DNA from: Candidatus Lloydbacteria bacterium
Lineage (GTDB): Bacteria > Patescibacteriota > Minisyncoccia > Phycocordibacterales > UBA6899
DNA length: 31,970 nucleotides
Reading direction: 5' to 3'
NCBI GenBank assembly: GCA_043756785.1
Contig: JAYUQK010000046.1
Span: 1 to 31,970 of the forward strand
Of the stretch, positions 13,683-30,633 are shown piece by piece. The position numbers and the translations under genes were made by a program. The notes under the pieces are model-generated. The model saw only the letters and a list, made by a program, of their open reading frames with translations, was not told the DNA's origin and did no database searches. The stretch's first letter is position 1. Each line of letters starts with the position of its first letter.

Positions 13683-13696
13683 TTTGGTGCAGCTTG

Positions 13697-14032
13697 ATGC
13701 TCCCCCGTCGACACAAACTTAGCCGGAAATCTTTTCCTGCCTACAATGCGCCATCAAAAACATGGAGGGGAAATTCTCTTACCATAAGATTTTTTAGAGG
13801 GCGAGGCGCTGGTGCGCCGCAGTTTGCCGTAGTTATTGCAAAAAAATCATATAATCTTGCCACAAAGAGGAATGGTATACGCAGAATCGTTTATCTGGCC
13901 ATTCGTGAACATTTAGCTGATTTTTCTCGGTTTGTGGGTACAAAATTTGTTATTACTCCACAAAAAAATATTTCCAACATAAACGACACTATGCGTAGTG
14001 ATATAGAGGCTTTCCTTCAAACACAACAATAA
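13697..14032 (+). CDS. rnpA: Ribonuclease P protein component
   Basis: MLPRRHKL, FAVVIAKK and the RNR motif 'ATKRNGIRR'. It lies between rpmH and yidD. Confidence 0.85.
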   Translation: MLPRRHKLSRKSFPAYNAPSKTWRGNSLTIRFFRGRGAGAPQFAVVIAKKSYNLATKRNGIRRIVYLAIREHLADFSRFVGTKFVITPQKNISNINDTMRSDIEAFLQTQQ

Positions 14033-14274
14033 TGAGTATATTCACCCGAGCCGTGCTCTCTGGCATTCGCCTCTATCGTAAAACAATTTCCCCAGATAGT
14101 GGGCTAATTCGTATGATCATCCCTCTCGGTGGTGTTTGTGTAATGTATCCGAGCTGCTCGATATACATGGAACAAGCAATCATAAAATACGGCCTTTTAA
14201 AGGGATTTTTCAGGGGTATTCGTCGAATTTTGCGTTGCCACCCATATCAAAAAAAACTCATCGACGAACCGTAG
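14032..14274 (+). CDS. yidD: Membrane protein insertion efficiency factor YidD
   Basis: Y...ISP, C.MYPSCS.Y..QAI.KYG..KG and RILRCHP. Confidence 0.95.
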   Translation: MSIFTRAVLSGIRLYRKTISPDSGLIRMIIPLGGVCVMYPSCSIYMEQAIIKYGLLKGFFRGIRRILRCHPYQKKLIDEP

Positions 14275-15109: not shown

Positions 15110-15113
15110 AACC

Positions 15114-15593
15114 ATGCAAACAAACGAATTTATTATCAGCACCATCACCACTCTTTTGGGCCACTTGGGTGTCGTGGTGGAAAGCGTGGTCGCAGAAACT
15201 GACACAAAAACTAAGTCACTTTCTTTTGCGGTCACCACGCCAGAGTCTCTTTTGTTGATAGGTGAGGGTGGTGCGCGGCTGCTCGCATTGAATCACCTCA
15301 TAAAACGTATTGTCGAAAAAAAGTTTGGTGCGGATGCACCAATTTTTTCTGTTGATGTGAACGGCTACCAAAAAAAACAGATTGACGAGGTACGCGCCAA
15401 AGCACACATGCTCGCCGAGCGTGCGCGCTACTTCAAAAGCACCGTAGAGATGGACCCCATGAGCTCCTACGAGCGCATGATAGTGCATTCAGAGTTTGCC
15501 GATACGCCGGACATTACCACATCCTCTTTGGGTATAGGAAAAGAGCGTCACGTCGTGCTCGCCTACTGTGAGCCAAAAGCGTTGAGCATATAA
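15114..15593 (+). CDS. jag: Jag/KhpB-like RNA-binding protein (KH + R3H, no Jag-N domain), 159 aa
   Basis: KH motif LLIGEGG..L.AL, VDVNGY, R3H motif PMSSYERMIVH and S.G.G.ERHVV. The start is at ATG 15114. Confidence 0.85.
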   Translation: MQTNEFIISTITTLLGHLGVVVESVVAETDTKTKSLSFAVTTPESLLLIGEGGARLLALNHLIKRIVEKKFGADAPIFSVDVNGYQKKQIDEVRAKAHMLAERARYFKSTVEMDPMSSYERMIVHSEFADTPDITTSSLGIGKERHVVLAYCEPKALSI

Positions 15594-15607: not shown

Positions 15608-16735
15608 TTATTTTAGTGGGCAGTTGCTGTATGCTCCTGGTGGAAGTGTGACGCCTGCCTTGTTCTTTCCTGTGCAAAACCAATATGGTTGGCCCACCTC
15701 ACAGACATGCCAATGGTTTCCTTCGTCTGTAAACCAAAAATTATTCAACAAATAACGACATGGATAAAAGGAGACCGCAGATTGCGTCGCACTACTACGG
15801 ATATACGCATCGAGTGCGGGTGTTTTTCTGAGGTCAAAAATAGGAGAATTTGGTTTATGTGTTGCATGCCCACTCTCTGTCCCACCAGTGATTACCACTG
15901 GAGGCGGAAGCGCTTTTATCGCAGCAATTGCAGAACTCGGCATTCCTTCAACGTTTATATACCCTGCTTTCAAGCAGTTTGAAATACCCGCAGGACAAGG
16001 TGGCTGCTTTATGGCCACAGGGATAGTCCCAAGCTGACAAAGGTTATTACCGCAAATACTATTACGGACAGCCGCCTCTCCAGACGAGGGCCCAGGTGGG
16101 GGGTTCCCTGGAGGTGGTGGGGGGACACCAACGGGTTGAGGATAGACATAGAAACAGTCAATCGTTGTACTAGGTGGTGTATAAACAATAATTCCCCCAA
16201 GTGCTACCTGCCCCTTCTTCCCCTCTATGCATTGTTCTATGGTTCCCCATTGTGGAGAGTTTAAAATGGGACCACTGGCAGAGTCTTTATAGCGATAGTA
16301 AAATCCCGGTTTTTTTGGTAGCGGTGCATTCGCTGCGGTTGTTGTTGCTGTTGGAGTAGTTGCGATGGCGGGGAGGCCAAGTAATGCAACATCGCTCGAA
16401 AGTAGCTGTGTGTTGATGGTATTTAATATAAGCCATGAGGATATAGCGAGGAGCAGCCCAAATATTGCGCTCGTAATACAATCCTTTGATGCACTTTTTT
16501 GTGATACCGACGGAGAGCCAATAAGCTGAATGCCGCATATGACGGTCATCACCACCGCGAGTATCCCTGCGACTCCTATTGTTACCTGCACAATACCCTC
16601 GAGGTATTGTGCGAGGGTGACATTTGGCCCCCCCAATGGCCCCAGTGGTGCGAGGAGTGTATAGGTCGATGGAGCAGCGAGTGCCACCACTGGAAGTAGA
16701 GTGAATAGCGCGAGTGTAAATATTTTTTTCATCAT
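15608..16735 (-). CDS. CPR-type (VirB2/TrbC-like) pilin fused to a Pro-rich linker and a Cys-rich probable M15/Hedgehog-like Zn peptidase domain, 375 aa
   Basis: The real start is MMKKIFTLALF (16735). Signal peptide, then YTLLAPL and two TM helices (GVAGILAVVMTVICG...AIFGLLLAISSWLILNTIN). The C-terminal part has ITGGTESGHATH...FDLR and EGNHWH. Confidence 0.8.
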   Translation of the reverse strand: MMKKIFTLALFTLLPVVALAAPSTYTLLAPLGPLGGPNVTLAQYLEGIVQVTIGVAGILAVVMTVICGIQLIGSPSVSQKSASKDCITSAIFGLLLAISSWLILNTINTQLLSSDVALLGLPAIATTPTATTTAANAPLPKKPGFYYRYKDSASGPILNSPQWGTIEQCIEGKKGQVALGGIIVYTPPSTTIDCFYVYPQPVGVPPPPPGNPPPGPSSGEAAVRNSICGNNLCQLGTIPVAIKQPPCPAGISNCLKAGYINVEGMPSSAIAAIKALPPPVVITGGTESGHATHKPNSPIFDLRKTPALDAYIRSSATQSAVSFYPCRYLLNNFWFTDEGNHWHVCEVGQPYWFCTGKNKAGVTLPPGAYSNCPLK

Positions 16736-16752
16736 ATGCGTCACTTTATTTT

Positions 16753-18132
16753 TTATTTCCTGATACTCCCCGCAGCGTCTCCCGCCTCTTCTATTGTGGG
16801 AGGGGTAACACTGTCTCCCTCCGTGTTTTCTGGTGCCTGCTTTATGCGCATAGACCAAAGAAAGCTCGTGTGCTTGTCGGTAAAGAATAGAAATTTTTCA
16901 GCACGATCAACAAAGGGCATTGTAGCATCGAGGCTCTTTTCCACATCCTGCTTAGGGTCCCCAAGGAGCCTAATATCAGTGGTGCGCGCGTCGACAGCCC
17001 AAAAGGTGTCGTCAAACGAAAGTAACCCTTGGTACCACTCATCAGGGATCATCTTTTTTTCAGTGTTCGTAAATGATGCACAATAGAGGCGTGCACCCCC
17101 CGCTGCCCATACACATTTTTCTGGAAGAGTAGTGAGGGGGAGTGCCTGCTCGTGGGTGACGAGCCCCTCATCCCCGTTATACCCCTTCTCGCTATATATC
17201 CCCACCGTGGCATTTCCGTTGATGTTCTCACCAAAGAGCACGTCGCCACCACTCACCATCCCGAGCGTGGTGAGTCCGTTTTTCTCACGCGCGATACGCG
17301 TCATCGACTTATCTGTGGGGTTGTAGAGATAGGAAAATCCTGCTGTGGCCGCAGAGGGCTTTGTGGTGAGTATTATTTTTCCGTCATTCAATATTTGTGG
17401 AAGCCATTCAGCAAAGGCACTCTCAAGTACTAGCTTGGGGTCTTTTATTGAGTCGAGCTGTACCACGTATCCAAGTACCCCCACCTCAGTAGGGAGAAGG
17501 TAAAACAATTTCGTGCCGTCTGGTGAGATGGAGACTGCACTGATATTGTCGGAGAGGTATTTTCCGCGAATCTCCCCTACCGCATCAGAGGAGTTTTGAG
17601 TACTACTTGGGAGGGAGATCTCACTGAGATATGTTTTTATTGTGTCGTACCCAAGCGAGCGGTCGAGATAGCGGAGCACGACAGTATCCCCATTGTTTCC
17701 AAAATACGCTTCGTACACCTGAGGGATAAGCGTATTAGTGAGCTGGCGCGTCGCAGCAGATACTGTGTCGAATTCAAATATCGTACCTCGCTCGCGCAGT
17801 ACATAGCGGACGAGTGTCTTACCGCTCTCCTCGAGCACCGTCGCACCTGCGATGGGTTTGTCGGTGATTTGCCGGAAAAGAGGCAGAAGCATATCGCTAC
17901 CTGGGATCGGCTGCCGCACACCAGGGTCAAGAGAGCCTGTGTTTGTGGCACTACTGCGCAGTGTGTCAGGGAGCACCTCTCCGAACGGTAGTACTTTTCC
18001 AATAGAGATGGCGATGGGTGAGTCTTTTGCAAAGCGCAGTACAAGAAAAGCCACAAGGGCGAGGATGAGGATGAAGGCAATTCCTCCAATGATGACCCAC
18101 TTTATGATTCCACTTTTGTTTTCTTCCTGCAT
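16753..18132 (-). CDS. Membrane-anchored beta-propeller-like (TolB/PD40-like) extracellular protein, 459 aa
   Basis: The start is MQEENKSG (18132), followed by one N-terminal TM and beta-rich repeats including 'SISPDGTKLFY' and 'PEKCVWA...LYCA'. Confidence 0.75.
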   Translation of the reverse strand: MQEENKSGIIKWVIIGGIAFILILALVAFLVLRFAKDSPIAISIGKVLPFGEVLPDTLRSSATNTGSLDPGVRQPIPGSDMLLPLFRQITDKPIAGATVLEESGKTLVRYVLRERGTIFEFDTVSAATRQLTNTLIPQVYEAYFGNNGDTVVLRYLDRSLGYDTIKTYLSEISLPSSTQNSSDAVGEIRGKYLSDNISAVSISPDGTKLFYLLPTEVGVLGYVVQLDSIKDPKLVLESAFAEWLPQILNDGKIILTTKPSAATAGFSYLYNPTDKSMTRIAREKNGLTTLGMVSGGDVLFGENINGNATVGIYSEKGYNGDEGLVTHEQALPLTTLPEKCVWAAGGARLYCASFTNTEKKMIPDEWYQGLLSFDDTFWAVDARTTDIRLLGDPKQDVEKSLDATMPFVDRAEKFLFFTDKHTSFLWSMRIKQAPENTEGDSVTPPTIEEAGDAAGSIRK

Positions 18133-18145
18133 GGTGATGGAGATA

Positions 18146-19138
18146 TTATTCGGCAGTAAATGAAATTTCAGTGCTTGCCCGCGCCTCTTGGAGTATGCGT
18201 TTTGGGTTTTGTATACGGAGCGACACCCCATACGTAGGACTGCTGCCCTCAGGCTTCACGAGGGTGAGGTATTGAGGCGAGAGTCCTGGTGAGGTGTATT
18301 TGCGGTCTACTTCCCATGTGTAAATAAGATTGCCGTTCAACAAGTTGTCCGAGGAAAAAAAGTATGGTACTGCGTAGATAGTAGCCTCCGTCTCTTTTGA
18401 GGAAAGCGTTTTGATGATGGGTTTACGTAGCTCTACGCCCAAGAGTGGGTCACGCTCGTAGAATACAATTTTTGCCTCACCCGCTGAGATGCTCGCATTC
18501 TTCACCCCCACCCAGTCGGTGCCCAAGAGGCGCACTTCTGCGGTGATGGGCACTGGTGTGCCTGCGTATCCCATGGGTATGACGACGCTGTTCTTCCCTT
18601 GCGCTTCTCCGAGGCCTTGGACGCGGTTGTACGTCCATTTATAGTAGTAGTCTTTGGGGTTGCTCGTGAGTGCACTGAAGCGAGGTATCGCCGTCACGCG
18701 CACAAGGCTTTTGAAAGTGGGGAGTGCTTTGCCTTTGTAAAATGGAGGAGTGTAGGTCTGTGCTTCCCATAGGAGGTCTACCTCCGCAGGAGCTATCACA
18801 AATTGTTTGTCGAGCTTGTCCCCTGCGGCAGTGATGATGATGACGTCGATAATTGTTTTTTCTCCGAAATAAGGGGTAGTGATGGTAATTTCTTTTTCTG
18901 CAATGCCGTTTTTGACGAACTCTTTGTTTACTATCCATGCGATATCCGCCGTATTGAGGTCGACCGCAAAAGAGTTGAGTCGTACGAGCACTTGCTCGAG
19001 AGCCCCCGGAGACTTGGGTGTGGTAACAAAATTAATGAGATCAACCGGCGCCGCCATGGAAATAATCGGCGTGGCGACTAGTGTAAAAAATACCCCCATA
19101 CCCACAAGTAAAACACGTTTTTTAAGACCAAGATGCAT
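18146..19138 (-). CDS. Secreted beta-rich (Ig/PKD-like) protein, 330 aa
   Basis: Signal peptide ending ISMA|AP and repeated beta-sandwich-like segments (IAWIVN, YYYKWTYN, LIYTWEVD). Confidence 0.8.
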   Translation of the reverse strand: MHLGLKKRVLLVGMGVFFTLVATPIISMAAPVDLINFVTTPKSPGALEQVLVRLNSFAVDLNTADIAWIVNKEFVKNGIAEKEITITTPYFGEKTIIDVIIITAAGDKLDKQFVIAPAEVDLLWEAQTYTPPFYKGKALPTFKSLVRVTAIPRFSALTSNPKDYYYKWTYNRVQGLGEAQGKNSVVIPMGYAGTPVPITAEVRLLGTDWVGVKNASISAGEAKIVFYERDPLLGVELRKPIIKTLSSKETEATIYAVPYFFSSDNLLNGNLIYTWEVDRKYTSPGLSPQYLTLVKPEGSSPTYGVSLRIQNPKRILQEARASTEISFTAE

Positions 19139-19169
19139 ACAATAATTTTACCCTATTTTACCCACGCGC

Positions 19170-19646
19170 TCAACCGCGTCTGTGAACAGCATACCGAAGC
19201 GCATGGGCGATAAGGTTGTCCTTGCGAATGGCATTTTCAAGGATACTGATGAGCACAAACATGACTGTAGTCATTGGGAGAAGCTCTAATACGGGGAAAG
19301 ACTCGATAAAAAAAGCAACGACACGAATAACAATCCGCTTGATCTGCGCCTTCATATGTAGACCACCATGTGTATAAAAATACACATGGGTGAGTATAAA
19401 CACGGCCAATGTTATACCGATACCTAAAATCCAAAAAAATATAGCGAGCGGAATCGTCACAATTGCAGCGGTAAACGCCAGCTTCATCGCAAAAAACATA
19501 AAATCGCTTGCATCATCGAGAATACAAACACCGAGCGTCATCCACCACAAAACCCCACCAAGTTTTTCGGGTGGGGAAGCCCCTGCCTCTTGGTCCGGAG
19601 AAGAGTATTCAGTTTGGTTCACATCTTGTTGTCTCGGTGAGGCCAT
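19170..19646 (-). CDS. Integral membrane protein (3-4 TM) downstream of virB4, 158 aa
   Basis: Polar N-terminus, hydrophobic core and IESFPVLELLPMTT motif. It starts 8 nt after virB4. Confidence 0.8.
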   Translation of the reverse strand: MASPRQQDVNQTEYSSPDQEAGASPPEKLGGVLWWMTLGVCILDDASDFMFFAMKLAFTAAIVTIPLAIFFWILGIGITLAVFILTHVYFYTHGGLHMKAQIKRIVIRVVAFFIESFPVLELLPMTTVMFVLISILENAIRKDNLIAHALRYAVHRRG

Positions 19647-19654
19647 AGAAATTT

Positions 19655-21454
19655 TTACCCCTGCGTCGCCAAAAGTTCTGCTTTTGCCTTTGCGATGGCG
19701 AGCATTTGGGCGGGGTCGGAGGAGACGATCTGGTCTTCGGTGTAGGATGCATAGACTTTTATTGCCACATGCTTTAGTCCTGCGAAAAAGAGCCCTTCTC
19801 CCACTCCAGACTCAAGGAGGAGGTATTTTTCCTCGTCTGTGAGGTGAAAAGTGGATTGAACGAGGTCGATAGTGGTGGGCGACTGCTTTAGGAGTATTTG
19901 TATGGAGGAATTTGTGAGGATGGGGAGCCCGTACGGGGAGCGCAAGAAGTCATTCACGTCTTGGGTAATGGTGGCCACTCCGAGGAAGTATTTGCGCCCA
20001 CGCTTGGCGAGACCAAAAAGGAAGGAGGCAGTATCTTCAGACTTCATCATCCACCACGCTTCGTCGACGACGAGGAGGCGCTTGCGGAGCTCCTTGCGTA
20101 CTGCGGTCCAGATGTGGTGTGTGACGATGTATACGGCGACGGGCTTCAGCTCGTCTTCCATGTTGCGCACAGAAAATACCGTAAAGCGCTTCGTAATGTC
20201 GACGTTGGTCGGTTTGTTGAGAAAGCCAGACCATGTACCCTTGGTATATTTTTCGAGGCGCTGGAGGAGTGACTCTGTGCCGTCCATTCCCGATAGTACG
20301 AGCTCGAAGTCGGAGAGGAGTGGCGCTTCGATATCCGCAAAATTGACGTCCCCGGTGATATCCCTCAGTGCATAGGTTTCAGCAATGGCACGGTCTACGA
20401 TAGAGTCTTCTTCTGGGGTGAGTCCGCCGAGCATGATACGAAAGAGTCCTACAAGAAAAATGATATTCGAGCGGAGCACGTCTTCTCCAGACTCATCCTC
20501 ACGCGGTGCGGGTAGGTCGAATGGATTGATATGGTGCTCTGAGTTGAGTGAAATATTAAAATATCGCCCTCCGGTAGCCTCTGCGAGGAAGCCATACTCA
20601 GACTCAGGGTCGATCACAATGACGTCCGCATCGAACATGAGTGTACGGATGATCTCGAGTTTTGTTGAATACGATTTACCAGATCCTGAAACAGCAAAAG
20701 TGACCGAGTTGTAGTTGGGCATTCCAAAGCGGTCAAAGAGAACCAAGGAGGCATTGTGGCGGTTTATACCCCAGAGAATACCTTTGTCTGACGTGAGGTC
20801 AAATGAAACAAAAGGGAATATCGACGAGAGGGGTGCAGAATTCATTTTGTAATGCACCGCGAGCTCATCGGTCATAATGGGAAGTACGCTGCGAAATGCC
20901 TGCTCTTGCTGGAATATTGCGGGCTTTAAATAGACGAGTTTTGCATCGAGGATAGACTTGATCTCACTCTCTGCTTTGTCGAGCTCCCCTTTTTCATTTG
21001 CGTAGACGGTAATGTAGAGCCCCACGTCAAAGAGTCGTTCTTGCGCCTGCTGGAGTTTGTCACGCAGGCCCTCGAGGTCTTGGTATGCGATATCAAGCAC
21101 GGGGTCACGCACAAAGCCTTTACGCTCGCGCTCGTTGATCTGGCTCTGCACCTCGGCAACTTTTTTCTGAAATGAGCGCAGTGCAAGCTCTGTCTCGATG
21201 GGGTGGATCATGATGGACACATCGTATACACGGTCGAGATTAATGATGGGCGTGAACCAGTCTTGGGAGAGGAATCGTGGGTAGGAGATCACAAAGAGTG
21301 TGCGTGCGATTTTGTCGCCTATATAAATTTCTTTTGGAGTTATTTTTATTGCTGCAGGTGCGAGAATATCCTTCATGTCGAGGTTTGTTGCCTCAAAAAT
21401 ATCTGAAGGAAGGGCACCAGTATTAAGATTTTCAAGTTCTTTTCGGTCTGTCAT
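19655..21454 (-). CDS. virB4: VirB4-like type IV secretion ATPase (C-terminal/main part), 599 aa
   Basis: GILWGIN, Walker A AVSGSGKS, VIVIDPESEY, INPFD, Walker B LLVVDEAW, KRGRKY and ITQD. It follows prgI. Confidence 0.88.
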   Translation of the reverse strand: MTDRKELENLNTGALPSDIFEATNLDMKDILAPAAIKITPKEIYIGDKIARTLFVISYPRFLSQDWFTPIINLDRVYDVSIMIHPIETELALRSFQKKVAEVQSQINERERKGFVRDPVLDIAYQDLEGLRDKLQQAQERLFDVGLYITVYANEKGELDKAESEIKSILDAKLVYLKPAIFQQEQAFRSVLPIMTDELAVHYKMNSAPLSSIFPFVSFDLTSDKGILWGINRHNASLVLFDRFGMPNYNSVTFAVSGSGKSYSTKLEIIRTLMFDADVIVIDPESEYGFLAEATGGRYFNISLNSEHHINPFDLPAPREDESGEDVLRSNIIFLVGLFRIMLGGLTPEEDSIVDRAIAETYALRDITGDVNFADIEAPLLSDFELVLSGMDGTESLLQRLEKYTKGTWSGFLNKPTNVDITKRFTVFSVRNMEDELKPVAVYIVTHHIWTAVRKELRKRLLVVDEAWWMMKSEDTASFLFGLAKRGRKYFLGVATITQDVNDFLRSPYGLPILTNSSIQILLKQSPTTIDLVQSTFHLTDEEKYLLLESGVGEGLFFAGLKHVAIKVYASYTEDQIVSSDPAQMLAIAKAKAELLATQG

Positions 21455-21463
21455 AGCTATGTA

Positions 21464-22105
21464 TTATACGGAAGCCCCCAGCTCGCCAGGGTTAAATTTT
21501 TTATAAAACAACTCTGTGACTTCTTCGGTACCCAAGCGCACCGTACGCAAGTCACAGCGGCTTAAACCTTGCTCAACAATGGAGACACGCTGCTCAAGCT
21601 GCACCCGTGCCTCCTCGAAGCTCTCAATCTCCTTCAGCTTCGCTTTTTGCGTTTTTACTGCTGGGGTAAGCCAGCCCAGCTTTCCCGTAGATTTTTCAGA
21701 TCCAGACGACTCACTGCGAGGACTAAAGGGAATAATAATAAAGAAGTTTTTTGACATAATATTCGTGCGGTCGGTAAACTCCTTAATGAATCCAATGTAT
21801 TCATGGACCTGAATTTTCATGGCGTCGATGAGTTGGGCCTTCTCTCGCTCCTCGAGTAGCTTGAGGTATGGTTTGATGTCGAGGCGTTTCGACTGGATGG
21901 ATATTTGAATAGGAAACTCAAGAGAGTTTAAAACATTTTGAAACTGCAAGAGAATTGCCGCCTGCTCATCTGTTGACTTTAGTCCGAAGTTTAAGGACGA
22001 GGTCATGAGCATCATGCGGAGGTTGCCGTTATTGAGCACGATAACCCCATTTTTAATGTCTTTTATGGGAACAAAATCTTGCGTGGGTTTTCCTAGGTTG
22101 GGCAT
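21464..22105 (-). CDS. TraC/VirB4 N-terminal-domain-like protein, 213 aa
   Basis: The start is MPNLGKPTQDFVPIKDI (22105). 'GVIVL..G...MLMTSSLNFGLKS.DEQ..I..QFQNVLNSL.FPIQI.IQS' resembles the N-terminus of Gram-positive VirB4 (PrgJ/ConE-type). Confidence 0.75.
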   Translation of the reverse strand: MPNLGKPTQDFVPIKDIKNGVIVLNNGNLRMMLMTSSLNFGLKSTDEQAAILLQFQNVLNSLEFPIQISIQSKRLDIKPYLKLLEEREKAQLIDAMKIQVHEYIGFIKEFTDRTNIMSKNFFIIIPFSPRSESSGSEKSTGKLGWLTPAVKTQKAKLKEIESFEEARVQLEQRVSIVEQGLSRCDLRTVRLGTEEVTELFYKKFNPGELGASV

Positions 22106-22122
22106 AAGTGTGTGGGGTTTTA

Positions 22123-22575
22123 TTATAGCACCAATGAGTCTTGGTGGACCTTTTGCTCCTCCACGGTCGAGGAGTGTACGTCGATAGACCAACTAAGGTC
22201 ACTGAGTTTATTTGTTGTAGTGGGGGATGTGATGAGTGTGGAAATGTGTTTTGTTGACTGAAAGTGGTCGAGGTTTAAGTGTATCTCTTCTGTCTTTTTT
22301 TCACGACGCCTCCAAATGTAGAGACGCGCACTTTTAATGAAATAGAACGCAGACTCGATCATGTCGGCAAAAGGTTTTTTGTTTGGCCTATAGTAGGCGA
22401 GTGCAGCGCCTAGCCCCACGCATCCTGCTCCTACTATGTAGCCAACGTAGGGCACAAAGCGTTGTGCTACGTACCCTAGGCCCACCCCACCGACAAGGTA
22501 AAGGAATTGCTTCATGGTAAATGGGCCAACTATTTTGTCCTCGACGTCGAGGAATTGGGGCATTTGAAACTGCAT
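22123..22575 (-). CDS. prgI: PrgI family (VirB3-like) membrane protein
   Basis: MQFQMPQFLDVEDKIVGPFTMKQF, two TM segments and RPNKKPF. It sits directly upstream of the VirB4 parts. Confidence 0.85.
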   Translation of the reverse strand: MQFQMPQFLDVEDKIVGPFTMKQFLYLVGGVGLGYVAQRFVPYVGYIVGAGCVGLGAALAYYRPNKKPFADMIESAFYFIKSARLYIWRRREKKTEEIHLNLDHFQSTKHISTLITSPTTTNKLSDLSWSIDVHSSTVEEQKVHQDSLVL

Positions 22576-22657
22576 GTACTACAGTATAGCAAAAAGTATC
22601 AAAGGTGACTTCTCATATCTTCCCTAATTTACTTTTTCCCCAAGGCTCTAGGCATTT

Positions 22658-23323
22658 TTAGTGTGGCAGTTCCCTGTACTGATCAAACGCGCGCGTTGTG
22701 GTGGTAGCTGCATCTGGCTGCGGCCTTGATGCGGGCATCGCCACTTGAGGGTTCGGGGGTATCACCTGTGTGGGGTTTGCCACCCCCATGCTTGATGAGA
22801 GCTCTCCTTTCATGCGGAATGCACCTCCTAATTTTTGCTCAAAAATACTTCCGGTAGGCACAGGAGGCACAATGGGCGCTGACACTATGGGTGCCACAGA
22901 CAGCACATTCCCTGGAGCTTTGTTTGCGAGTGCTGCTGCCGCCGACATTTCCCCAGGAAGGCAAGTCACAAGCGATGGATCTAGTGGTGCGACTACTTCC
23001 TTTTTCTCTGGAGTAGCGTGGACTTCTTGCAGCGCATCCTTCACCAGACTAAAAATGTCACGATTAATATCTTGGGCAAGGTACGCCGCTTTCTCTCTGG
23101 ATACACTGAGTTCGTCGGCTATTGTTTCGACGAATGCGACTGGTGTGATCACCCCCCGCATAAGGTTTGCAGTTATGCGCACGAGGAAGCCCCGCTCCAT
23201 GATAGGGAGACCCTGCTTTTCTCCTATGGCCTCGATTTTCTCCGCAGTATCTTCGCGACTGAGTATTTCACGGATCGCAATAGGGAGCTCTGCCCATGGT
23301 TTTTTCTGTGTGAAGTTCGTCAT
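22658..23323 (-). CDS. Soluble hypothetical protein with a helical N-domain, Pro-rich tail and terminal D.YRE motif, 221 aa
   Basis: Open frame starting 3 nt after the virB6 stop and ending FDQYRELPH. Confidence 0.8.
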   Translation of the reverse strand: MTNFTQKKPWAELPIAIREILSREDTAEKIEAIGEKQGLPIMERGFLVRITANLMRGVITPVAFVETIADELSVSREKAAYLAQDINRDIFSLVKDALQEVHATPEKKEVVAPLDPSLVTCLPGEMSAAAALANKAPGNVLSVAPIVSAPIVPPVPTGSIFEQKLGGAFRMKGELSSSMGVANPTQVIPPNPQVAMPASRPQPDAATTTTRAFDQYRELPH

Positions 23324-23326
23324 ATA

Positions 23327-25660
23327 TTAGATGGTGGGTGCGGTCGGTGGGATCACTCGCGACTGTGGGGCCGAGCGCGCCGCTGCCGCAGTCCGAGCGT
23401 TTTGCTGCGAGTCTGCCGTCCGTGTTTGCGCTTCCGTGTTGTATTTTTGGAGGTTTTCCTCGAATTTTGCTGCAAGTGCAGCATCAGTATTTTTTAGTTT
23501 TGTCCTGAGTTCACCTATGACTTTTGTGCCGTAATTACTCACGACAGCTTCATGGATGATGAGGTCGTTGGAGAGTTGGCTTATTTCTTCAGCACTACCC
23601 ATCATGCCGAGTGTCCTTTCTACCTCCTCTTTTTGTTTTACTGCATAGAGCTTGAATGCATCAGAGTCCTTGCCGAGCGCTGTCTTCTGGTTGTCATAAT
23701 CAGTGGTGAGTGTGGCGAGGCTTGCTGGAGCGTCGTAAGAGAATGGCCCAGAAACTTTCGTTTGGCTCTTCATGTAGTTTTTTGCAGAATCAGTGCCATT
23801 TTGTGCAACACCCGCAGTAATAGCACTTATCGTTTCTGGGGTGAGTTCAGTCGATTTTAGTGTGAGTGCAGTGAGGTCTTCTCTGCGTAAGGCAGAAATG
23901 ACGGGAGCCATCTTCAAGTGGTCTTGTGTGAGTAGGTCCGCAGACTCTTTTCCAGAGAGTTGGCCAAGAAGTTCCTTCATCTTCTTTGCGACATCTTTCT
24001 CGATAGTGATAAGCTCGGCAGTGCCCATACTCGAGTCTTTTGTCGCAGCCTCATAGCGAGCATGCTCTTTTTTGAATTCGTCTTTTACGCTCTGCGTCTT
24101 CTCCCCGCGGTCGAGTTCTGTCTTCACGTCCTTATTGCGCTTTGCTGCCAAGTCGACTCCGCGATCGCCAAGATACATTTTTTGTGCAGCGGGGTCAGCG
24201 GCGTAGCGCGCTTTGGCGGCGTCGATCAATTCCTTCTCTTTTGCTGTGCCACGATAACCCTTCGTGAGACTGCTGAGTACTTGCCCTGTTTCACCATAGT
24301 TTTTCTTGCTTCCGGCACCAGCATTCACACCCCCGAGGCCGAGTAGTTTATTGGCACCAGCATTGCGTGCATCCCATGTACCCTTCTTCATCTTCTCACC
24401 GCTTGCAAGGCCAAGGTTCCCTGCAAAGCGAGAAATACGACTGTCTTTGTTTGCCGCCATCTCCTGTAGTTTTTTATTTTCAGAAACCCGTTTTCCGAGC
24501 CACCCACCACCTTGCCTTCCGACCATTGCAGCACCAGCAAATGTTGCCCCCGCACCGTAGCCGAGGTATTTTTTGGCGAGCCTACTTCCCTGCTCCCCTG
24601 CACCACCAGAGACCGAGCTTGCAACGGTGAGTGACGCAAGAAGAAGAATAATAACGACGAGGAAGTTATAGATAATAGGAAAGCTTCCCACATCTCCCGA
24701 AAACACCCCTCCAAATTTTGCGCCATTTGAGTTTGTCAGTTTTTGTAGGTCGAGCCCATTGATGATGATGATGTCGAGGTAAAGCATACCCAAAAATGCG
24801 GGCGCAACAAACGCATTTCCTATGAGTTTACTCAGCCACTTGTTTGCATAGCTACCACCCCCAGGAAGCGCAAAGCTTAAAAAGGCAAATGGCGATGCAA
24901 TCATGAGTAAAATAAGTGTCACCGTGCGCACGATCATCATGATTGCCCCAGAGAGAAAGACAAATCCCGCAATAAGCATTACCAGCGCGCCACCGAGGTA
25001 GGTGAGTGTTCTTGTTTGCGCACTGCTATCCGTAGGCTTCCCATCCTTGTCTTTGAGGTCAAAGTTTGTTTGCAGCTTCAGTCCTTGCATCAAGTTTTCC
25101 GCGGCGCTTGGGTCTGGCTTCCCTACAATAGTCATTTTTTCCCAGAACCCCATGGCGAGCACGTTGCCCGCGTCGATGACTACTTTGGTGGCAAAGAGGC
25201 TGAAATTAATGAGAATGGCGGCGATGATGAGATTTGCTACCCACTTTTTTGTGCTGCTTCCCGCAAGGCCGAGAATAGTCTTGATGGCAATATACAGGAG
25301 AGCAAAGATAAAGAACATATTCGAAAAGTCGCGCACAGTAGTCCAACCAACGTTTATGACTTGGAGGTTTTGATACAAACTACTCGATATTGTCATCGCT
25401 ATTCCCATGTCGAGAAGTTTTCCCATCACGACAACAAATAGCCCCGCTACCCAGAATATAAAATTCGCAATTGGCTCGAGCAGCGTGAAGAGCAAAGAGC
25501 TTGCCCCATCCGTAACAAAATCCCATGCCTTACCGAGCATGCTTGGCTCCGCAGCATAAGAAATTTCAGGTACGAATAATAGCGCAGCAACAAAAAAGCC
25601 ACCCATGCCCAAAAAGAATGAGAGCTTCTTTTGTCGAAATGAATAATAGTACAGGTTCAT
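23327..25660 (-). CDS. virB6: Extended VirB6/TrbL-like polytopic membrane protein, 777 aa
   Basis: About 7-8 TM segments in the first 350 aa (W..VRDFSNMFFIFALLYIAI, LINFSLF...VID, IVRTV.L..L...SPFAF, W..KL...AF.AP), then a hydrophilic tail of about 420 aa. Confidence 0.75.
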   Translation of the reverse strand: MNLYYYSFRQKKLSFFLGMGGFFVAALLFVPEISYAAEPSMLGKAWDFVTDGASSLLFTLLEPIANFIFWVAGLFVVVMGKLLDMGIAMTISSSLYQNLQVINVGWTTVRDFSNMFFIFALLYIAIKTILGLAGSSTKKWVANLIIAAILINFSLFATKVVIDAGNVLAMGFWEKMTIVGKPDPSAAENLMQGLKLQTNFDLKDKDGKPTDSSAQTRTLTYLGGALVMLIAGFVFLSGAIMMIVRTVTLILLMIASPFAFLSFALPGGGSYANKWLSKLIGNAFVAPAFLGMLYLDIIIINGLDLQKLTNSNGAKFGGVFSGDVGSFPIIYNFLVVIILLLASLTVASSVSGGAGEQGSRLAKKYLGYGAGATFAGAAMVGRQGGGWLGKRVSENKKLQEMAANKDSRISRFAGNLGLASGEKMKKGTWDARNAGANKLLGLGGVNAGAGSKKNYGETGQVLSSLTKGYRGTAKEKELIDAAKARYAADPAAQKMYLGDRGVDLAAKRNKDVKTELDRGEKTQSVKDEFKKEHARYEAATKDSSMGTAELITIEKDVAKKMKELLGQLSGKESADLLTQDHLKMAPVISALRREDLTALTLKSTELTPETISAITAGVAQNGTDSAKNYMKSQTKVSGPFSYDAPASLATLTTDYDNQKTALGKDSDAFKLYAVKQKEEVERTLGMMGSAEEISQLSNDLIIHEAVVSNYGTKVIGELRTKLKNTDAALAAKFEENLQKYNTEAQTRTADSQQNARTAAAARSAPQSRVIPPTAPTI

Positions 25661-25664
25661 GTGC

Positions 25665-27893
25665 TTAATATCCCGTAGGGTCAGCGGCTGCTCCTGCGGT
25701 CACAATGACCTCAGGGCTTGTAGAGCTAAACTTCATTTCGTCGTATATCATGAGCATTGTGGCCTGTGCCCAGTCGGTGGTCTGTGCGGAAATACCAAAG
25801 TAGCCAATGTCGATAACGTCATAGAATTCACGCACAAGCTCGTTGACTGCCGTCGGTGCGTTTGCTATCCCCGCTTCGGAGTAGCCGAGGAGGCCTCCGG
25901 GGCTGGTATTGAGCTCGACCGACTGGTCCTCGAGGTCGCCTTGGGCTCCACCGTCGAGCGTATTGCCGTCCTGTACCGCCTCGAATCCCGCACTTGACGA
26001 GCGCGTGACGTTGTCTTGGTTTTGAAATTGTGGGGTGACTGCGGTGCCGAGAGTGTCTAGACAGTAAGGGTCGTCTGCGGTGCCAGAGCACTCGATGTCT
26101 GCGCGTGCTCCCGTATTTGCAAATTCGTCCCGCTTTGCCTGCTCTTGGCGCGCTAGGCGACCTGCAGTTTCTGCATCGAGCTGCGTTGCTGCGCCAAGTG
26201 GGGAGTTTTGTGGGTTTGAAAGAAGGTCTATGAACATATCCATGCCACCTACCCCGCTCGGGTCGTTGAAGTTATCTGAGAATTTTCCAAAGTCGTTCGG
26301 GTTCGCAAGTCCACATTGTGTTCTTGATGGGGCTGAAAACATTGGGTCTTCCACACTGAGCTTGTTGTTGCGGGCGCTATTTGCTGCCGTATCGAGCCGC
26401 CAAGGCTCACAAATTCCAAGCGACCCTATGGGGTCACCTGAGGCGGGGTCCCCAGCTGCTTGGGCGATGGTGTGCTCAAGGGTGCGACCTTTCACGTTGT
26501 AGATACTCTGGCTCGCATTGGTGTTGTAGACCGCTTCGGTCGAGACGACGCTGTTGTTCACCACTTCATTGCCCGACTTTGCCCAATTGAGGTTTGCGGC
26601 GGAAATCTTACCAACGAGCTGATTGTTGAGCTGCTTTGCCTGTGCGTCGGCGATGTATGTCTTGAGCATTGAGTGGATCTGAATGCTCAAGCCCAGCTTT
26701 TCCCACTCGACAAGCTCTTGCAGCAAACAGCGCAGCGATGCGCTGTTATTCACCTTCACGGATATTGTCGTGGGTATTGTGCTACTGGCACCACTGCTGG
26801 CATCCGTCCACGAACCCTCCGTGTATGCTTCTGGGTCAAGACCACCAACGCCACCGAGTATGTACGCAGGCTTTGTTGCGCACTTTGATTTTGCCACCCC
26901 ACCAGGGTTCCCTCCCGCGATGGTGTCTCGGATGGAGTCTGGTGCACCAGTCAAGGCCGAGTTCACTTGCTTGGCGTATGTGTCAAAGTTCTTTGAGTAT
27001 GTCGTAAACTTAGCAATAAGCTCAAAGTCTTTCACGGGTACGAATGGCCCCCCGAGTACTCCAGAGATAGCCGCTGATATTGATGAGGCAACCCCTGGGC
27101 CGAGTGCAGAAAGTACTGAAGAGGAAAGTGAGCCAAGGACGGATGCGGGCAAAGAGGAGAAAACCTCTGAGCCCAGTGACCCAAGCACGCCTGGGGGAAG
27201 TCCTGATAAAACACCATTGAGTGCTGTGCCTGAAAGCCCTGAAAAAATACTTGAAGGAAGACTTGATAAAAGACCTGAAGTGATACTAGGGAGAACAGCC
27301 GAGAGTTGTGTCGCAGTGAGACCTGCAAGGTTGGTTAGCCCAGCAAGTCCAACGCTGCTCATGCTGTTGATGAGCGAAGTGATTTGCGCTGCTGGTACAG
27401 CAGAAAAAAGAGTTGAGGAGAGTCCCGAAAGTAGCGCTGGAGGCATGCCGTCTAGTGCTGCGGCGAGTGCTGTGGTTGGGAGTGCCGTCAGGCTCGTGGT
27501 GAGGCCACCAAGGTTTGTCGGTAATAGCGCACTGAGAGTACCAGTGAGCTGGCTTACTGAAAAATTTAAAAATGTATCAGGTGGCAGAGCATTGAGAACA
27601 CTTTGTGCCGATGAGTCGAGGATGAGGTCGATTTGTGCTGGAGAAAGCAGTGCAAAGTTAGCCGTGGTGGGGTTGAAGGTGGGGCTTGCGGGGTCCCATG
27701 TGGCTAGGGTGGCGAGTGGGAGAGTGGCAAGAAAGTTTGTGAGTATCGTTGTGGGCAGTGCATTAATAGTACTTGTGAGGTCCCCCGCAAGTGCAGTGGA
27801 TGGAAAAAGCATAAGGAAGCCGAGAATGGTTCCCGTGGCAGACTTTTTTAGCTGTGCATGTGTCAAATACGCCCCACCAAAGAAGATAGTCAT
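25665..27893 (-). CDS. Large secreted protein: L/S/G-rich 8-residue repeats + PVxD (VirB5/TrbJ-like) motif + Cys-containing domain, 742 aa
   Basis: The start at 27893 is supported by TATACT 7 nt upstream. Signal ends PSTALA|GD, followed by about 245 aa of repeats, GGPFVPVKD and six Cys. It ends 4 nt before virB6. Confidence 0.8.
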   Translation of the reverse strand: MTIFFGGAYLTHAQLKKSATGTILGFLMLFPSTALAGDLTSTINALPTTILTNFLATLPLATLATWDPASPTFNPTTANFALLSPAQIDLILDSSAQSVLNALPPDTFLNFSVSQLTGTLSALLPTNLGGLTTSLTALPTTALAAALDGMPPALLSGLSSTLFSAVPAAQITSLINSMSSVGLAGLTNLAGLTATQLSAVLPSITSGLLSSLPSSIFSGLSGTALNGVLSGLPPGVLGSLGSEVFSSLPASVLGSLSSSVLSALGPGVASSISAAISGVLGGPFVPVKDFELIAKFTTYSKNFDTYAKQVNSALTGAPDSIRDTIAGGNPGGVAKSKCATKPAYILGGVGGLDPEAYTEGSWTDASSGASSTIPTTISVKVNNSASLRCLLQELVEWEKLGLSIQIHSMLKTYIADAQAKQLNNQLVGKISAANLNWAKSGNEVVNNSVVSTEAVYNTNASQSIYNVKGRTLEHTIAQAAGDPASGDPIGSLGICEPWRLDTAANSARNNKLSVEDPMFSAPSRTQCGLANPNDFGKFSDNFNDPSGVGGMDMFIDLLSNPQNSPLGAATQLDAETAGRLARQEQAKRDEFANTGARADIECSGTADDPYCLDTLGTAVTPQFQNQDNVTRSSSAGFEAVQDGNTLDGGAQGDLEDQSVELNTSPGGLLGYSEAGIANAPTAVNELVREFYDVIDIGYFGISAQTTDWAQATMLMIYDEMKFSSTSPEVIVTAGAAADPTGY

Positions 27894-28001
27894 ATACTCT
27901 AGTATACCTGTAATTTTATTTATACTATAGTCTCTACGCAGTACTTCCTTGTGGCACACCATGGTGATGATTTGTGTTAAATAATAAAAGTTGCGCATAT
28001 G

Positions 28002-29006
28002 CTACTGCCGACTTTCGCTACCCAAGTAAAAAGGGTACCCCGGCTCATATATAGTAAAAGCTATATTTTTTTCCCTTAAGTACATAACGACGTCTGCATA
28101 CCCTGCGATCATTTCAATGCGCATTTTCGTGTATGTTTGGTATCCCGCAGCGCCCTCAACGGGATTGGAAAAAAGGTACTGCATCCCCAGTAGCCCTCGG
28201 TACATGCCGTCGTACCCGTTCACTATTTTCAGGTGTGCGGGCGCAAGTGGCCTCGGTACCAAAAGAGCACGGAGGTCACGAGAGAAATTGCGATAGTCGA
28301 CCGCAATCAGCTGGAGGCCCTTTAGTGATTCGTCGCTCCGTGTTTTCATGCCCTCCGCGAGCACCACCTCTTCGTTTTGTGTTGTACGTCCTGTGTATTT
28401 TTTAATTATTACACCAAATGCGTTGCCGTATGCGCGCAATGCCTCCGGGCTTTCGTCTGAGGAGATGTTGAGGTCGAGAATTTCGTTCGTAGAAATAAAT
28501 TTTCTCTTGTCGAACCCCTTAATCAGGTCGCGAAAAGTCGTCTCACGCACGTCACGGCTCGCACTTGCGAGGTATTTTGCAAAAAATTCCTTTTTTATAC
28601 CCAAGAGATCTGTCGACGATGTTGCAAAACCTACTCCCTTAGGCGCCACCACCTTGTCGTTCGGTCCCGCTTTAGTGGGGTCTCTCCCCTCGCGTATCTC
28701 GGCGCCGTCTTCTGTACCATCGCCGTCCGTGTCAGCAGTAAATGGGTCAGACTGGTTTAGGCGCTCTTCCCAGTCGGGCAGCCCGTCTTTGTCGCTGTCA
28801 CGCAGTGTAATGTCGTCATTTTTTGTAATACCGCCCCTCTCTATAGTAGCAGTGTCGGCCCCCTCCTGCTTTGGGTCTATGTTCTGTGCGGAGTTATAGT
28901 AAAAACCAGTACTGGCAATAGTGAGCGCAGCAATAGCACTGATGATTAAGTTTTTGTGCAAAAATCGAGAAGTATCCATAGTTTTTCTGAGCTCCGAAAG
29001 ACCCAT
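28002..29006 (-). CDS. Membrane-anchored protein with bacterial thrombospondin type 3 (DxDxDG) Ca-binding repeats
   Basis: N-terminal TM, DSDKDGLPDWEE and DTDGDGTEDGAE, and a helical C-domain. Alternative start at 28979. Extended -10 TGaTACAAT at 29036-29044. Confidence 0.82.
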   Translation of the reverse strand: MGLSELRKTMDTSRFLHKNLIISAIAALTIASTGFYYNSAQNIDPKQEGADTATIERGGITKNDDITLRDSDKDGLPDWEERLNQSDPFTADTDGDGTEDGAEIREGRDPTKAGPNDKVVAPKGVGFATSSTDLLGIKKEFFAKYLASASRDVRETTFRDLIKGFDKRKFISTNEILDLNISSDESPEALRAYGNAFGVIIKKYTGRTTQNEEVVLAEGMKTRSDESLKGLQLIAVDYRNFSRDLRALLVPRPLAPAHLKIVNGYDGMYRGLLGMQYLFSNPVEGAAGYQTYTKMRIEMIAGYADVVMYLREKNIAFTIYEPGYPFYLGSESRQ

Positions 29007-29145: not shown

Positions 29146-30633
29146 ATGCGCAACCCCCATTTCCAATCTCTCCTCTACCCACTCCTGTCTGGTATTTTGC
29201 TCTCTCTCGCCACGCCATATTTTGGGTTTTGGCAGCTCGTTTTCCTCGCACTCATTCCGCTCGGACTTTTTCTGCAGCACACGAGCTCATTTAGGCGTGC
29301 TTGTGTCGGAACGCTCCTCACGAGTGTTCCTTTTTGTTTTTTTTCTGCCGAACCCCTCTTTCATTTGGCGGGAACGTGGTGGGTAGTCGGCCCATCGGCG
29401 TCGCTCTTCCACGCCCTCATACCCTACTTTCTGGGTGTTGCGATGCTTATCGCACTCACGTCTCTCACCTACCTCGCCGCCACCGCGGTATACATGAATG
29501 TGCGCGACAGAGAGAGGGGGGGATTTTATGCACCACTCTTTTGTTTTAGTGCGACATGGGCACTCACTGAATTATTGCGTTCATGGCTACTCCTCGGTGG
29601 CTATAGTTGGGCCGTCGTGGGGTATGCGCTCATTGATGCTACCTACGTGAAGCATGTGGCAGTATTTGGTGGTGTGTACAGCCTCTCCTTCATCGCAGTG
29701 TTTGTGGGAATGTGGGGTGCGGGTGTTTTGGGTAGCGTGTGTGCTACGAGCGGGACTCTACTGACATGCGTACGCCACGCATTTTTTGCGAAAGAGCGAG
29801 TGCGTGAGTCACTTATTTTTTTCATATGTGTTGTGGGTGCGACGCTATTTAGCCTCTATCGCGAAATTCGTGGCCCTCAACCTACGGAGCCTATGCGCGT
29901 GGCGGTCATCTCCTCCTCGATGTCCACATTAGAGAGCATAGAAGAGGGCGCATATCGTACATATTTGCAGCTTTTAGGAAATGCACTCGACGCCTCTTCC
30001 GCCCTCGTCGTTTTTCCGGAGAATGTATTTCCCTTTTTTGTGATAGATGAAGAGGCTGGTGAGCTTCCTTCCCACACAGAAACACAGCACTCCCCGCCAA
30101 ATATTGAAGAGTTGTACGGCGAGTTGCTGGCGGTTTCTCGCGCCCACCCAAGCGTCGTGCTCGCAATTCCACTCCATAGCTACAGGCAAAAACTCACGCA
30201 CAATAGCATTTTTCTGTACCAGAATGGACAAATCATAAGTAGCTATCAAAAAAGAAAACCAATACCCTTTGCGGAGTTCTCCCCTTTTGGCCTCCGTCTC
30301 CCACTCCTTGAGACGATAGCAAAAGGGGCGCCAAAGCAAGATTTTCGGATGGGAAATATTCGCTTGGCGGGATATATGTGTGGAGAGATAGGCATCACCT
30401 CCCTCAGTGCGTTCGGGGCCCGCATCATCATCTCCCCATCAAACGAAAGTGTGCTTACTTCTCCTGTGCTCGCCACACAGCAGCACCAATTTGCACGCAT
30501 GAGAGCGCTCGAGGAGGGTGCATATGTACTGCGCTCTTCGAAGGGGGGCATATCGAGCGTTATCGACCCGTATGGGCGTGCACAAGAGAGCATGGTGGGT
30601 GAAAATGGAGTAATTATTTTTGACATTAAATAG
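29146..30633 (+). CDS. lnt: Apolipoprotein N-acyltransferase (Lnt)-like protein
   Basis: About 6-7 N-terminal TMs with 'TELLRSW..GGYSW..GY' and 'GGVYSLSF'. Nitrilase-fold triad: VFPEN, YQKRKPIPFAE and MCGE. Also RALEEG.YVLRS..GGISSVIDPYG. Confidence 0.85.
   Translation: MRNPHFQSLLYPLLSGILLSLATPYFGFWQLVFLALIPLGLFLQHTSSFRRACVGTLLTSVPFCFFSAEPLFHLAGTWWVVGPSASLFHALIPYFLGVAMLIALTSLTYLAATAVYMNVRDRERGGFYAPLFCFSATWALTELLRSWLLLGGYSWAVVGYALIDATYVKHVAVFGGVYSLSFIAVFVGMWGAGVLGSVCATSGTLLTCVRHAFFAKERVRESLIFFICVVGATLFSLYREIRGPQPTEPMRVAVISSSMSTLESIEEGAYRTYLQLLGNALDASSALVVFPENVFPFFVIDEEAGELPSHTETQHSPPNIEELYGELLAVSRAHPSVVLAIPLHSYRQKLTHNSIFLYQNGQIISSYQKRKPIPFAEFSPFGLRLPLLETIAKGAPKQDFRMGNIRLAGYMCGEIGITSLSAFGARIIISPSNESVLTSPVLATQQHQFARMRALEEGAYVLRSSKGGISSVIDPYGRAQESMVGENGVIIFDIK

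Follow-up and report, generated by a model that had tools for sequence, protein, structure and literature searches.

The window analysed here, 31,970 nucleotides (nt) of contig JAYUQK010000046.1 (C46; assembly GCA_043756785.1) from Candidatus Lloydbacteria, carries eleven co-oriented minus-strand open reading frames (ORFs) that occupy positions 29006 to 15608 and are numbered g01 to g11 in the direction of transcription. The source organism is a Parcubacteria/Paceibacteria-type member of the Patescibacteria with a genome of 0.92 Mb, 90% complete. The original prediction, made from the letters of the window, described this cluster as a domesticated, vertically inherited machine resembling a type IV secretion system (T4SS), belonging to a monoderm episymbiont and devoid of a conjugation module. 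Family assignments, a relaxase search, synteny and tree comparisons support that description, and the cluster is very probably a chromosomal, non-conjugative T4SS or pilus apparatus of the type characteristic of Patescibacteria. With the most plausible start codons (ATG 18132 for g10, ATG 16735 for g11, ATG 22105 for g06 and probably ATG 27893 for g02), the intergenic gaps measure 3, 4, 3, 82, 17, 9, 8, 31, 13 and 14–17 nt. The ORF calls confirm the predicted tight packing, with gaps mostly of 3–31 nt, except for the sole 82-nt gap, which precedes prgI. Promoter and terminator scans inside the cluster returned signals at or near chance level.

Judged by its family matches, the core of the cluster is a T4SS of the monoderm type. 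The T4SS motor and signature protein, the VirB4 ATPase, is encoded by g07 (19655–21454), which scores 366.5 bits (2.7e-109) against NF045971 (conju_CD1110, a family of Firmicutes integrative conjugative elements, ICEs), above the cut-off of 325, and also matches Pfam P-loop_TraG (1.9e-24, 86.5 bits) and CagE_TrbE_VirB. Upstream of it, g06 (21464–22105) appears to encode a TrsD-like protein, homologous to the N-terminal domain of VirB4 but encoded on its own. It aligns to the N-terminal positions of VirB4 models (NF045975, 3e-8; NF045971, 2.2e-4) and weakly to the TrsD model NF041427 (0.0049), and its orthologues, at 47–72% identity, are present in 13/13 of the related loci compared throughout (13 genomes, 11 families). 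A stand-alone TrsD-like protein is the commonest T4SS component in Patescibacteria (PMC12102498). The product of g05 (22123–22575) is a small PrgI/VirB3-like membrane protein (Pfam PF12666, 2.4e-5); its 25.2 bits lie just below the cut-off of 27, yet all 13 orthologues match PrgI, the best at 2.8e-12. The 777-amino-acid (aa) polytopic membrane protein encoded by g03 (23327–25660) carries seven hydrophobic segments in its N-terminal ~350 aa, followed by a hydrophilic tail of ~430 aa. It matches NF046089, the CD3337/EF1877 mobilome membrane family, at 2.8e-4, far below the cut-off. The protein is present in 13/13 loci, and three of 14 orthologues match Pfam TrbL/VirB6 (best 2.2e-5), so that "extended VirB6" is a reasonable but not proven label.

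The VirB4 and PrgI labels of the original prediction are thereby borne out, and the matches obtained for VirB4, TrsD, PrgI, VirB6 and the pilin all fall to T4SS families. The predicted "VirB4-N" is retained as a TrsD-like protein matching N-terminal VirB4 positions, but through weak matches; the "extended VirB6" keeps its hydrophobic segments, its hydrophilic tail and its orthologue support, but its own family match falls short.

At the downstream end of the cluster, g11 (15608–16735) encodes a VirB2-type T4SS pilin fused to a domain resembling the LAS-type (M15-like) zinc peptidases, an arrangement that agrees with the "pilin-peptidase" label given to it beforehand. The protein consists of a signal peptide, two membrane helices, a Thr/Pro-rich linker and a 157-aa Cys-rich C-terminal domain (15611–16081). 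The pilin part scores 27.3 bits against T4SS_pilin (PF18895; cut-off 26.6), and its orthologues match the same model in 12/12 cases, six of them also matching TrbC/VirB2. Among 1.8 billion cluster representatives, the C-terminal domain has 183 relatives, most of them situated C-terminally in proteins of 280–430 aa, and in at least 77 of the best 150 the pilin hallmark (LILNTINP-like), ~100 residues in, is found upstream. An alignment of 38 sequences reveals that G66, G67, D83 and H125 are invariant and that T68, E69, H75, E120 and H123 are nearly so (H75, H123, E69 and E120 at 90% or more), giving the motif string TGGTE...H-x7-D...E...H-W-H. The arrangement H-x7-D ... H-x-H is what we take to be the ligand pattern of LAS zinc peptidases. 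The more general pattern H-x(3-8)-D plus a C-terminal H-x-H or E-x-x-H is likewise present in the domain as candidate zinc ligands.

Structural comparison points weakly in the same direction. The AlphaFold2 model of the domain has a predicted local distance difference test score (pLDDT) of 90.7, and VIA-align, an exhaustive structural search over 48,161 chains, fills its first eight places with LAS enzymes but for one: MepA, the Sonic hedgehog N-domain (ShhN; two entries), VldE, Drosophila Hedgehog, VanX, a Streptomyces zinc DD-peptidase and LdcB. The corresponding Z values are 5.0 for MepA, 4.6 for ShhN, 4.2 for VldE, 3.7 each for VanX and 1lbu and 3.6 for LdcB, and lower ranks hold DacB, LysB4, VanY, Ply500 and the phage T5 and RB49 peptidases, the overall range being 5.0 to 2.5. 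In addition, the AlphaFold database (AFDB) clusters Peptidase M15A, M15B and M15 match the domain at 3.7e-5 to 2.4e-3, and the best AFDB match contains an SLT domain as well. No NCBIfam M15 match and no PDB sequence match was obtained for the domain. That the pilin-borne domain is an active wall peptidase is about as likely as not.

The fused domain differs between relatives. In a sister genus (G024; L023:4988-6157) the pilin ends instead in an SLT lytic transglycosylase domain, recognised by Pfam (5.2e-7) and by alignment, and in two other families the pilin, of 161 aa, has no extra domain (L014:12441-12926 and L016:12477-12962); the long tails borne by other orthologues are without a family assignment. 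The occurrence of SLT in place of the LAS-type domain is an argument that the fusion has been selected for wall cutting. From these sequences we read the pilin as a putative carrier of interchangeable wall-cutting enzymes that would stand functionally in the place of VirB1. To our knowledge, and within a literature search that was not exhaustive, no described T4SS has a wall hydrolase fused to its pilin. An RlpA/DPBB domain suspected by eye in the pilin of another genome (G032, L019) found no Pfam support and was discarded. As a separate observation, eight more small T4SS_pilin genes lie far from the cluster in two tandem arrays of five and three (C65:1357-2928 and C106:16066-17082), flanked in one case by genes for a solute-binding protein, an FtsJ-type methyltransferase and CorA, and in the other by ribosomal protein S1 and a fatty acid hydroxylase.

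Between VirB4 and the pilin lie two extramembrane proteins whose linkage to virB4 is new here. The first, encoded by g09 (18146–19138), is an exported or N-terminally anchored protein of 330 aa with an N-terminal hydrophobic segment; it occurs in 13/13 loci of the order and in 55/101 class genomes, and in the cases checked by eye it sits immediately downstream of virB4, between virB4 and the propeller gene. Its earlier "Ig-like" label is no more than hinted at, through weak Ig V-set matches (E 0.016–0.1). The second, g10 (16753–18132), encodes a 459-aa protein in which an N-terminal membrane helix and a disordered linker precede a TolB/WD40-like beta-propeller placed outside the membrane. AlphaFold2 models it with a mean pLDDT of 80.7 (above 90 in the propeller), and Foldseek retrieves ODA16, G-beta and TolB from the PDB (E 1e-9) and a candidate-phyla "peptidoglycan binding-like" cluster from AFDB (2e-24), in accord with the propeller originally proposed. 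The g10 profile finds one copy in 75/101 class genomes, and where both genes are present the propeller gene shares the virB4 contig, at a distance of 7 kb or less, in 63/73. Beyond these, the phylum sample yields weaker relatives in 28 other genomes, of which 27 fall outside the class; about half lie 2–8 kb downstream of virB4. Across the class, then, both the membrane-anchored propeller and the 330-aa protein are linked to virB4, the propeller partly beyond it. In one class member (G085) the propeller gene is duplicated in tandem downstream of virB4 (C5:6051-9289).

Profile searches against PDB sequences returned nothing significant for g09, g10, the VirB6-like protein, the pilin C-terminal domain or the C-terminal domain of g02, and ESM Atlas look-ups of g09, the g02 C-terminal domain and g01 led to Minisyncoccota clusters without a named function. 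Participation of g09 in the Pam donor-strand pili of candidate phyla radiation (CPR) bacteria was considered and dropped: the report on those pili (PMC13278184) contains no T4SS link and describes another gene context, a comparison made by description only.

None of the remaining four cluster proteins could be assigned to a family. The first gene, g01 (28002–29006), encodes a 334-aa protein with a bacterial thrombospondin type 3 (TSP3) calcium-binding repeat and a C-terminal domain; Pfam PF18884 (8.9e-6) upholds the TSP3 label, its ESM Atlas neighbours are Minisyncoccota TSP3 proteins, and orthologues head the cluster in 9/13 loci by tblastn. The product of g02 (25665–27893) is a secreted repeat protein comprising a signal peptide, an L/S/G-rich insert and a 450-aa domain with six Cys, and it has no Pfam, NCBIfam or PDB match. 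The insert, ~245 aa long and nearly charge-free, follows the signal peptide (window 27055–27790). Orthologues in the genus and family (500–565 aa) lack it and continue with ...SYVPVxD directly after the signal peptide, and an ORF of 330–700 aa stands at this position in the other loci extending that far. A DNA-level tandem repeat was looked for in the insert and none was found, which indicates that it is not a recent expansion. The soluble 221-aa protein of g04 (22658–23323) has a helical N-terminal part, a Pro/Ala-rich tail and no hydrophobic segment. Its orthologues are detectable in 6/13 loci, one or two ORFs of ~130–440 aa occupying the space between VirB6 and PrgI elsewhere. Hydropathy assigns three hydrophobic segments to the 158-aa membrane protein of g08 (19170–19646), which has sequence orthologues within the family only and an ORF of ~110–360 aa at the same position in 11/13 loci. 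Neither g04 nor g08 gave any match in family-model searches.

Gene order and phylogeny both speak for vertical inheritance of the cluster. As tblastn and ORF maps reveal, the cluster stands beside yidC-dnaA-dnaN in 13/13 loci. The common order runs from the TSP3 protein through a protein of 330–700 aa, VirB6, one or two ORFs of ~130–440 aa, PrgI and TrsD to VirB4, and onward through usually a small ORF, the 330-aa protein, and the pilin and propeller in interchangeable order to (jag) yidC, dnaA, dnaN and PBP1. VirB4 itself is detected in 39/41 relatives from 17 families of the order (70–100% identity across the order), in 97/101 genomes of the class sample and in 115/121 genomes of the phylum sample (40–100% identity), mostly as a single copy throughout. 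Its identity to the window's protein correlates with that of RpoB (reference G000:C58, L033:3-2813; Spearman 0.91, 33 genomes) and equals or exceeds it in 33/33 genomes, with 70–75% against 62–69% at the order level. Conservation of this degree is unusual for a secretion ATPase and is a sign of very strong constraint. The VirB4 and RpoB trees both fully support the family clade and share the same two deep pairs, and the approximately unbiased (AU) test does not reject the RpoB topology with the VirB4 alignment (p = 0.09).

Taken with the synteny and the near-universal presence of VirB4, the correlation and the AU test uphold the vertical inheritance originally proposed, and the apparatus is very probably a T4SS of the Patescibacteria clade passed on in this way. 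The signs that had been named as pointing to an ICE, namely patchy presence, incongruent phylogeny and a flanking integrase or relaxase, were not found. In a separate case, one genome of the same genus (G020, ~94% complete) contains VirB4 only as a 40-residue fragment while its RpoB is 90% identical to the reference RpoB, which reflects either an assembly gap or a rare loss.

The cluster converges on plus-strand jag/R3H (15090–15593), behind which lie, also on the plus strand, yidC (14369–15109), yidD (14032–14274), rnpA (13694–14032) and rpmH (13548–13682); beyond rpmH follow dnaA (11990–13342) and, beyond it, dnaN (10638–11738), both on the minus strand. The replication-origin neighbourhood (11739–13693) comprises a DnaA-box cluster in the dnaN-dnaA spacer, dnaA, the dnaA-rpmH spacer and rpmH. 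Six DnaA-box-like sites with at most one mismatch lie at 11776–11981 in the dnaN-dnaA spacer and two at 13335–13439, out of 16 in the whole window against 7.2 expected, and the cumulative GC skew reaches its minimum at ~14–15 kb. The box cluster and the skew minimum together place oriC 2–4 kb from the 3' end of the cluster, and the proposed position beside the rpmH-yidC-jag block, about 4 kb from oriC, is therefore confirmed.

If the boxes at 11776–11981 or the dnaA-rpmH spacer mark the origin, the T4SS operon would run toward it and meet the rightward fork head-on; the relative orientation, with virB4 on the dnaA strand and yidC opposite, is kept in 13/13 related loci. Elsewhere in the window, a PilB/T2SSE-type ATPase of 752 aa containing an MshEN domain (710–2968) marks a type IV pilus motor at a distance of 13 kb from the T4SS, and a 405-aa minus-strand ORF with weak FN3 matches (2–1216) overlaps it, which suggests that one of the two starts is miscalled. 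Directly upstream of the cluster is an apolipoprotein N-acyltransferase-like gene (LNT_N plus CN_hydrolase; 29146–30633) in an organism presumed monoderm, and a partial homologue lies on the same side of the cluster in the sister genus G024 (L023).

Functions expected of a DNA-transfer system are missing from the locus. The relaxase families PF03432, PF01076, PF03389, PF08751 and PF02486 gave no match in the 90%-complete genome, with control genomes positive, so the predicted lack of a relaxase is sustained genome-wide for these five; PF13814 (Replic_Relax) likewise gave no match in the genome, but the control genomes were silent too. Family-model searches of the window's larger ORFs detected no relaxase, no integrase or recombinase and no VirB7/9/10 family, which agrees with the predicted absence of an integrase and of VirB7/9/10 at the locus. 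Matches to Phage_integrase, of the tyrosine-recombinase type, are confined in the genome to contigs C92 and C38.

The predicted absence of VirD4 stands for the window, where no coupling protein (VirD4/TcpA) was detected, but it does not strictly hold for the genome, since a very divergent TraD/VirD4-like ATPase is encoded on another contig. This 805-aa ORF (C63:3873-6290) bears a weak likeness to coupling proteins, scoring 22 bits against T4SS-DNA_transf, 42 bits against SXT TraD and 25 bits against CedD (8.6e-6), all far below the curated cut-offs. It sits in a housekeeping context beside ClpX, with genes for a Rieske protein, a glycosyl hydrolase, a surface protein and an epimerase also in the neighbourhood. 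By sequence it may be either a diverged type IV coupling protein or an unrelated HerA/FtsK-like ATPase. Coupling-protein homologues are common in Patescibacteria but lie far from virB4 (PMC12102498).

A working model can be assembled from these parts. VirB4, the TrsD-like VirB4-N, PrgI/VirB3 and the extended VirB6-like protein would form the membrane platform, in which g08 may also take part. VirB4 with TrsD and PrgI would power the extraction of VirB2-type pilins and their polymerisation via the VirB6 channel, and that the cluster builds such a pilus is on balance probable. Through its zinc-peptidase-like domain, the pilin would bring peptidoglycan cutting to the assembly site or to the filament, opening the epibiont's own wall and possibly that of the host, a role played elsewhere by VirB1. 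The anchored propeller and the 330-aa protein might constitute a wall-spanning scaffold, a task that falls to VirB8/9/10 in other systems. The filament would then touch the host cell for the exchange of macromolecules rather than for conjugation; pili that may belong to a T4SS have been observed where a parasite meets its host (bioRxiv 10.64898/2026.06.21.733656). The fuller proposal, that the propeller, the 330-aa protein and the hydrolase-bearing pilin make up a Patescibacteria-specific extracellular module replacing VirB8/9/10 and VirB1, with the pilus or its assembly site armed for breaching the host wall, is tentative and rather doubtful.

Several points weigh against this interpretation. 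The VirB6 and TrsD assignments depend on sub-threshold sequence matches, and casting the propeller and the 330-aa protein as a scaffold is guesswork. No cluster protein gave a family match to a VirB8-like bitopic protein of the PrgL/TraM type, and the fold of g10 is a propeller, not NTF2-like as in VirB8. The modelled likeness of the g11 C-terminal domain to LAS enzymes is weak (Z at most 5.0), Foldseek found nothing in the PDB with its model, and Pfam M15 matched none of the g11 orthologues at E <= 0.05 (n = 12). The RpoB alignment rejects the VirB4 maximum-likelihood topology (p = 0.002), the differing nodes being weakly supported. Finally, the existence of the C63 ATPase leaves room for substrate coupling and even for DNA handling.

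That last point bears on an alternative in which the machine imports nucleic acids, in the manner of Helicobacter ComB or archaeal Ced, and so feeds an organism unable to make nucleotides. The ComB system has no relaxase, and none was detected in this genome; the C63 ATPase weakly matches the Ced ATPase CedD. Moreover, T4SS genes co-locate with comF, recG and radA in the class ABY1 (PMC12102498), and a 2026 preprint ties VirB4 monophyly to host-RNA feeding. Against this, loss of comEC in Southlakia ends competence and not viability, whereas the T4SS is indispensable (PMC12857230). Subunits specific to ComB or Ced were not found here, and both the pilin arrays and the wall-cutting pilin fusions suggest a filament directed outward. 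Import of this kind is accordingly judged unlikely.

A second alternative reduces the machine to a pilus for adhesion or contact that carries no cargo, its T4SS core being kept solely as a pilus assembly motor. The nine VirB2-type pilin genes of the genome would fit such an organelle, as would the absence from the cluster of any clear coupling protein, and the finding that in Southlakia the coupling-protein homologue is non-essential and the pilins essential (PMC12102498). The extended VirB6 hints instead at a channel, as does the extreme conservation of VirB4; a type IV pilus ATPase, PilB, lies 13 kb away, and type IV pili are already tied to adhesion in the phylum (PMC12857230). A pilus-only organelle is judged improbable. 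The notion of an integrative conjugative element, or its decayed remnant, near the origin by chance is rejected as barely credible: the best VirB4 model is an ICE family of Firmicutes, the VirB6 hint comes from a "mobilome membrane protein" family and Patescibacteria VirB4 is nested in the conjugative MPF-FATA class (PMC12102498), but no relaxase was detected in the 90%-complete genome and no integrase in the window, the flanks yidC-dnaA-dnaN-PBP1 are identical in 13/13 loci of 11 families, the near-universal, mostly single-copy VirB4 is at least as conserved as RpoB and congruently inherited, and the GC content of the cluster resembles that of its flanks.

A non-conjugative Patescibacteria T4SS is a known kind of system, since its type, its missing DNA-transfer genes and its origin-proximal site have all been published (PMC10633639, PMC12102498). 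Wang et al. 2023 (PMC10633639) showed that Southlakia epibionticum ML1 cannot grow epibiotically without its T4SS cluster (SEML1_0006-0019), which they likened to Gram-positive conjugative systems; it includes pilins and has neither coupling protein nor relaxase. In the tables of that paper the core order is a T4SS-like large membrane protein, PrgI, a hypothetical protein and a P-loop ATPase, downstream of which comes a lysozyme/glucosaminidase protein, and the gene numbers are those of the very beginning of the chromosome; the hypothetical protein of the core is a TrsD homologue (PMC12102498). Quinonero-Coronel et al. 2025 (PMC12102498) detected VirB4 in 2,417 of 3,035 genomes, most of it in one clade nested in MPF-FATA, with TrsD, PrgI, VirB6 and VirB2-like pilins, arrays included, near virB4 and almost no relaxases. 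They also reported rare inter-class transfer and the proximity of dnaA, dnaN, rnpA and rpmH in Paceibacteria and Microgenomatia, and a 2025 review repeats this picture (PMC12857230).

The new content is incremental, consisting of the class-wide linkage of two subunits and of the domain-swapped pilin-hydrolase fusions, in which the putative C-terminal wall-cutting domain is LAS-like here and SLT in a sister genus. Few machines are known to be essential to Patescibacteria living as epibionts, and the T4SS is among them. The locus adds no new principle to it; the constraint on VirB4, the virB4-linked extramembrane proteins g09 and g10 and the pilin-fused wall enzymes provide concrete handles on the question of cargo and direction in cultured relatives.

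Compared with the Patescibacteria-clade T4SS and with Southlakia, the Lloydbacteria locus has in common the order VirB6-like, PrgI, TrsD, VirB4, the VirB2-type pilins, a wall hydrolase downstream of virB4, the absence of a relaxase and of a coupling protein in the cluster, the chromosomal site by dnaA, dnaN, rnpA and rpmH, and near-universal presence. It differs from Southlakia in that its wall hydrolase is fused to the pilin, whereas that of Southlakia is a separate lysozyme/glucosaminidase protein, and in that its pilin arrays lie on other contigs and not in the cluster. The membrane-anchored beta-propeller, the 330-aa exported protein, the TSP3 protein and the repeat protein are extras not found described in PMC10633639 or PMC12102498. 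Specifically, no mention of the propeller, the TSP3 protein or pilin-hydrolase fusions was found in PMC12102498, and no propeller in the Southlakia cluster annotation (PMC10633639). With Gram-positive T4SSs the locus shares a CD1110-family VirB4, PrgI/VirB3, TrsD-like and VirB6-like proteins and the absence of a VirB7/9/10 outer-membrane complex; unlike them, it showed no relaxase, encodes no coupling protein close by and none of its products is recognisably VirB8-like (PrgL/TraM), while it possesses VirB2-type pilins and is chromosomally fixed and vertically inherited. The fused domains, in turn, resemble VirB1-type hydrolases in the SLT domain that occupies the C-terminal position of the sister-genus pilin, and LAS enzymes (M15, MepA, Hedgehog-N) in the ligand pattern and in the best structural matches, namely MepA, ShhN, VanX, VanY and phage L-Ala-D-Glu peptidases. 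Unlike the LAS enzymes, the g11 domain contains ten additional Cys and forms one polypeptide with a pilin.

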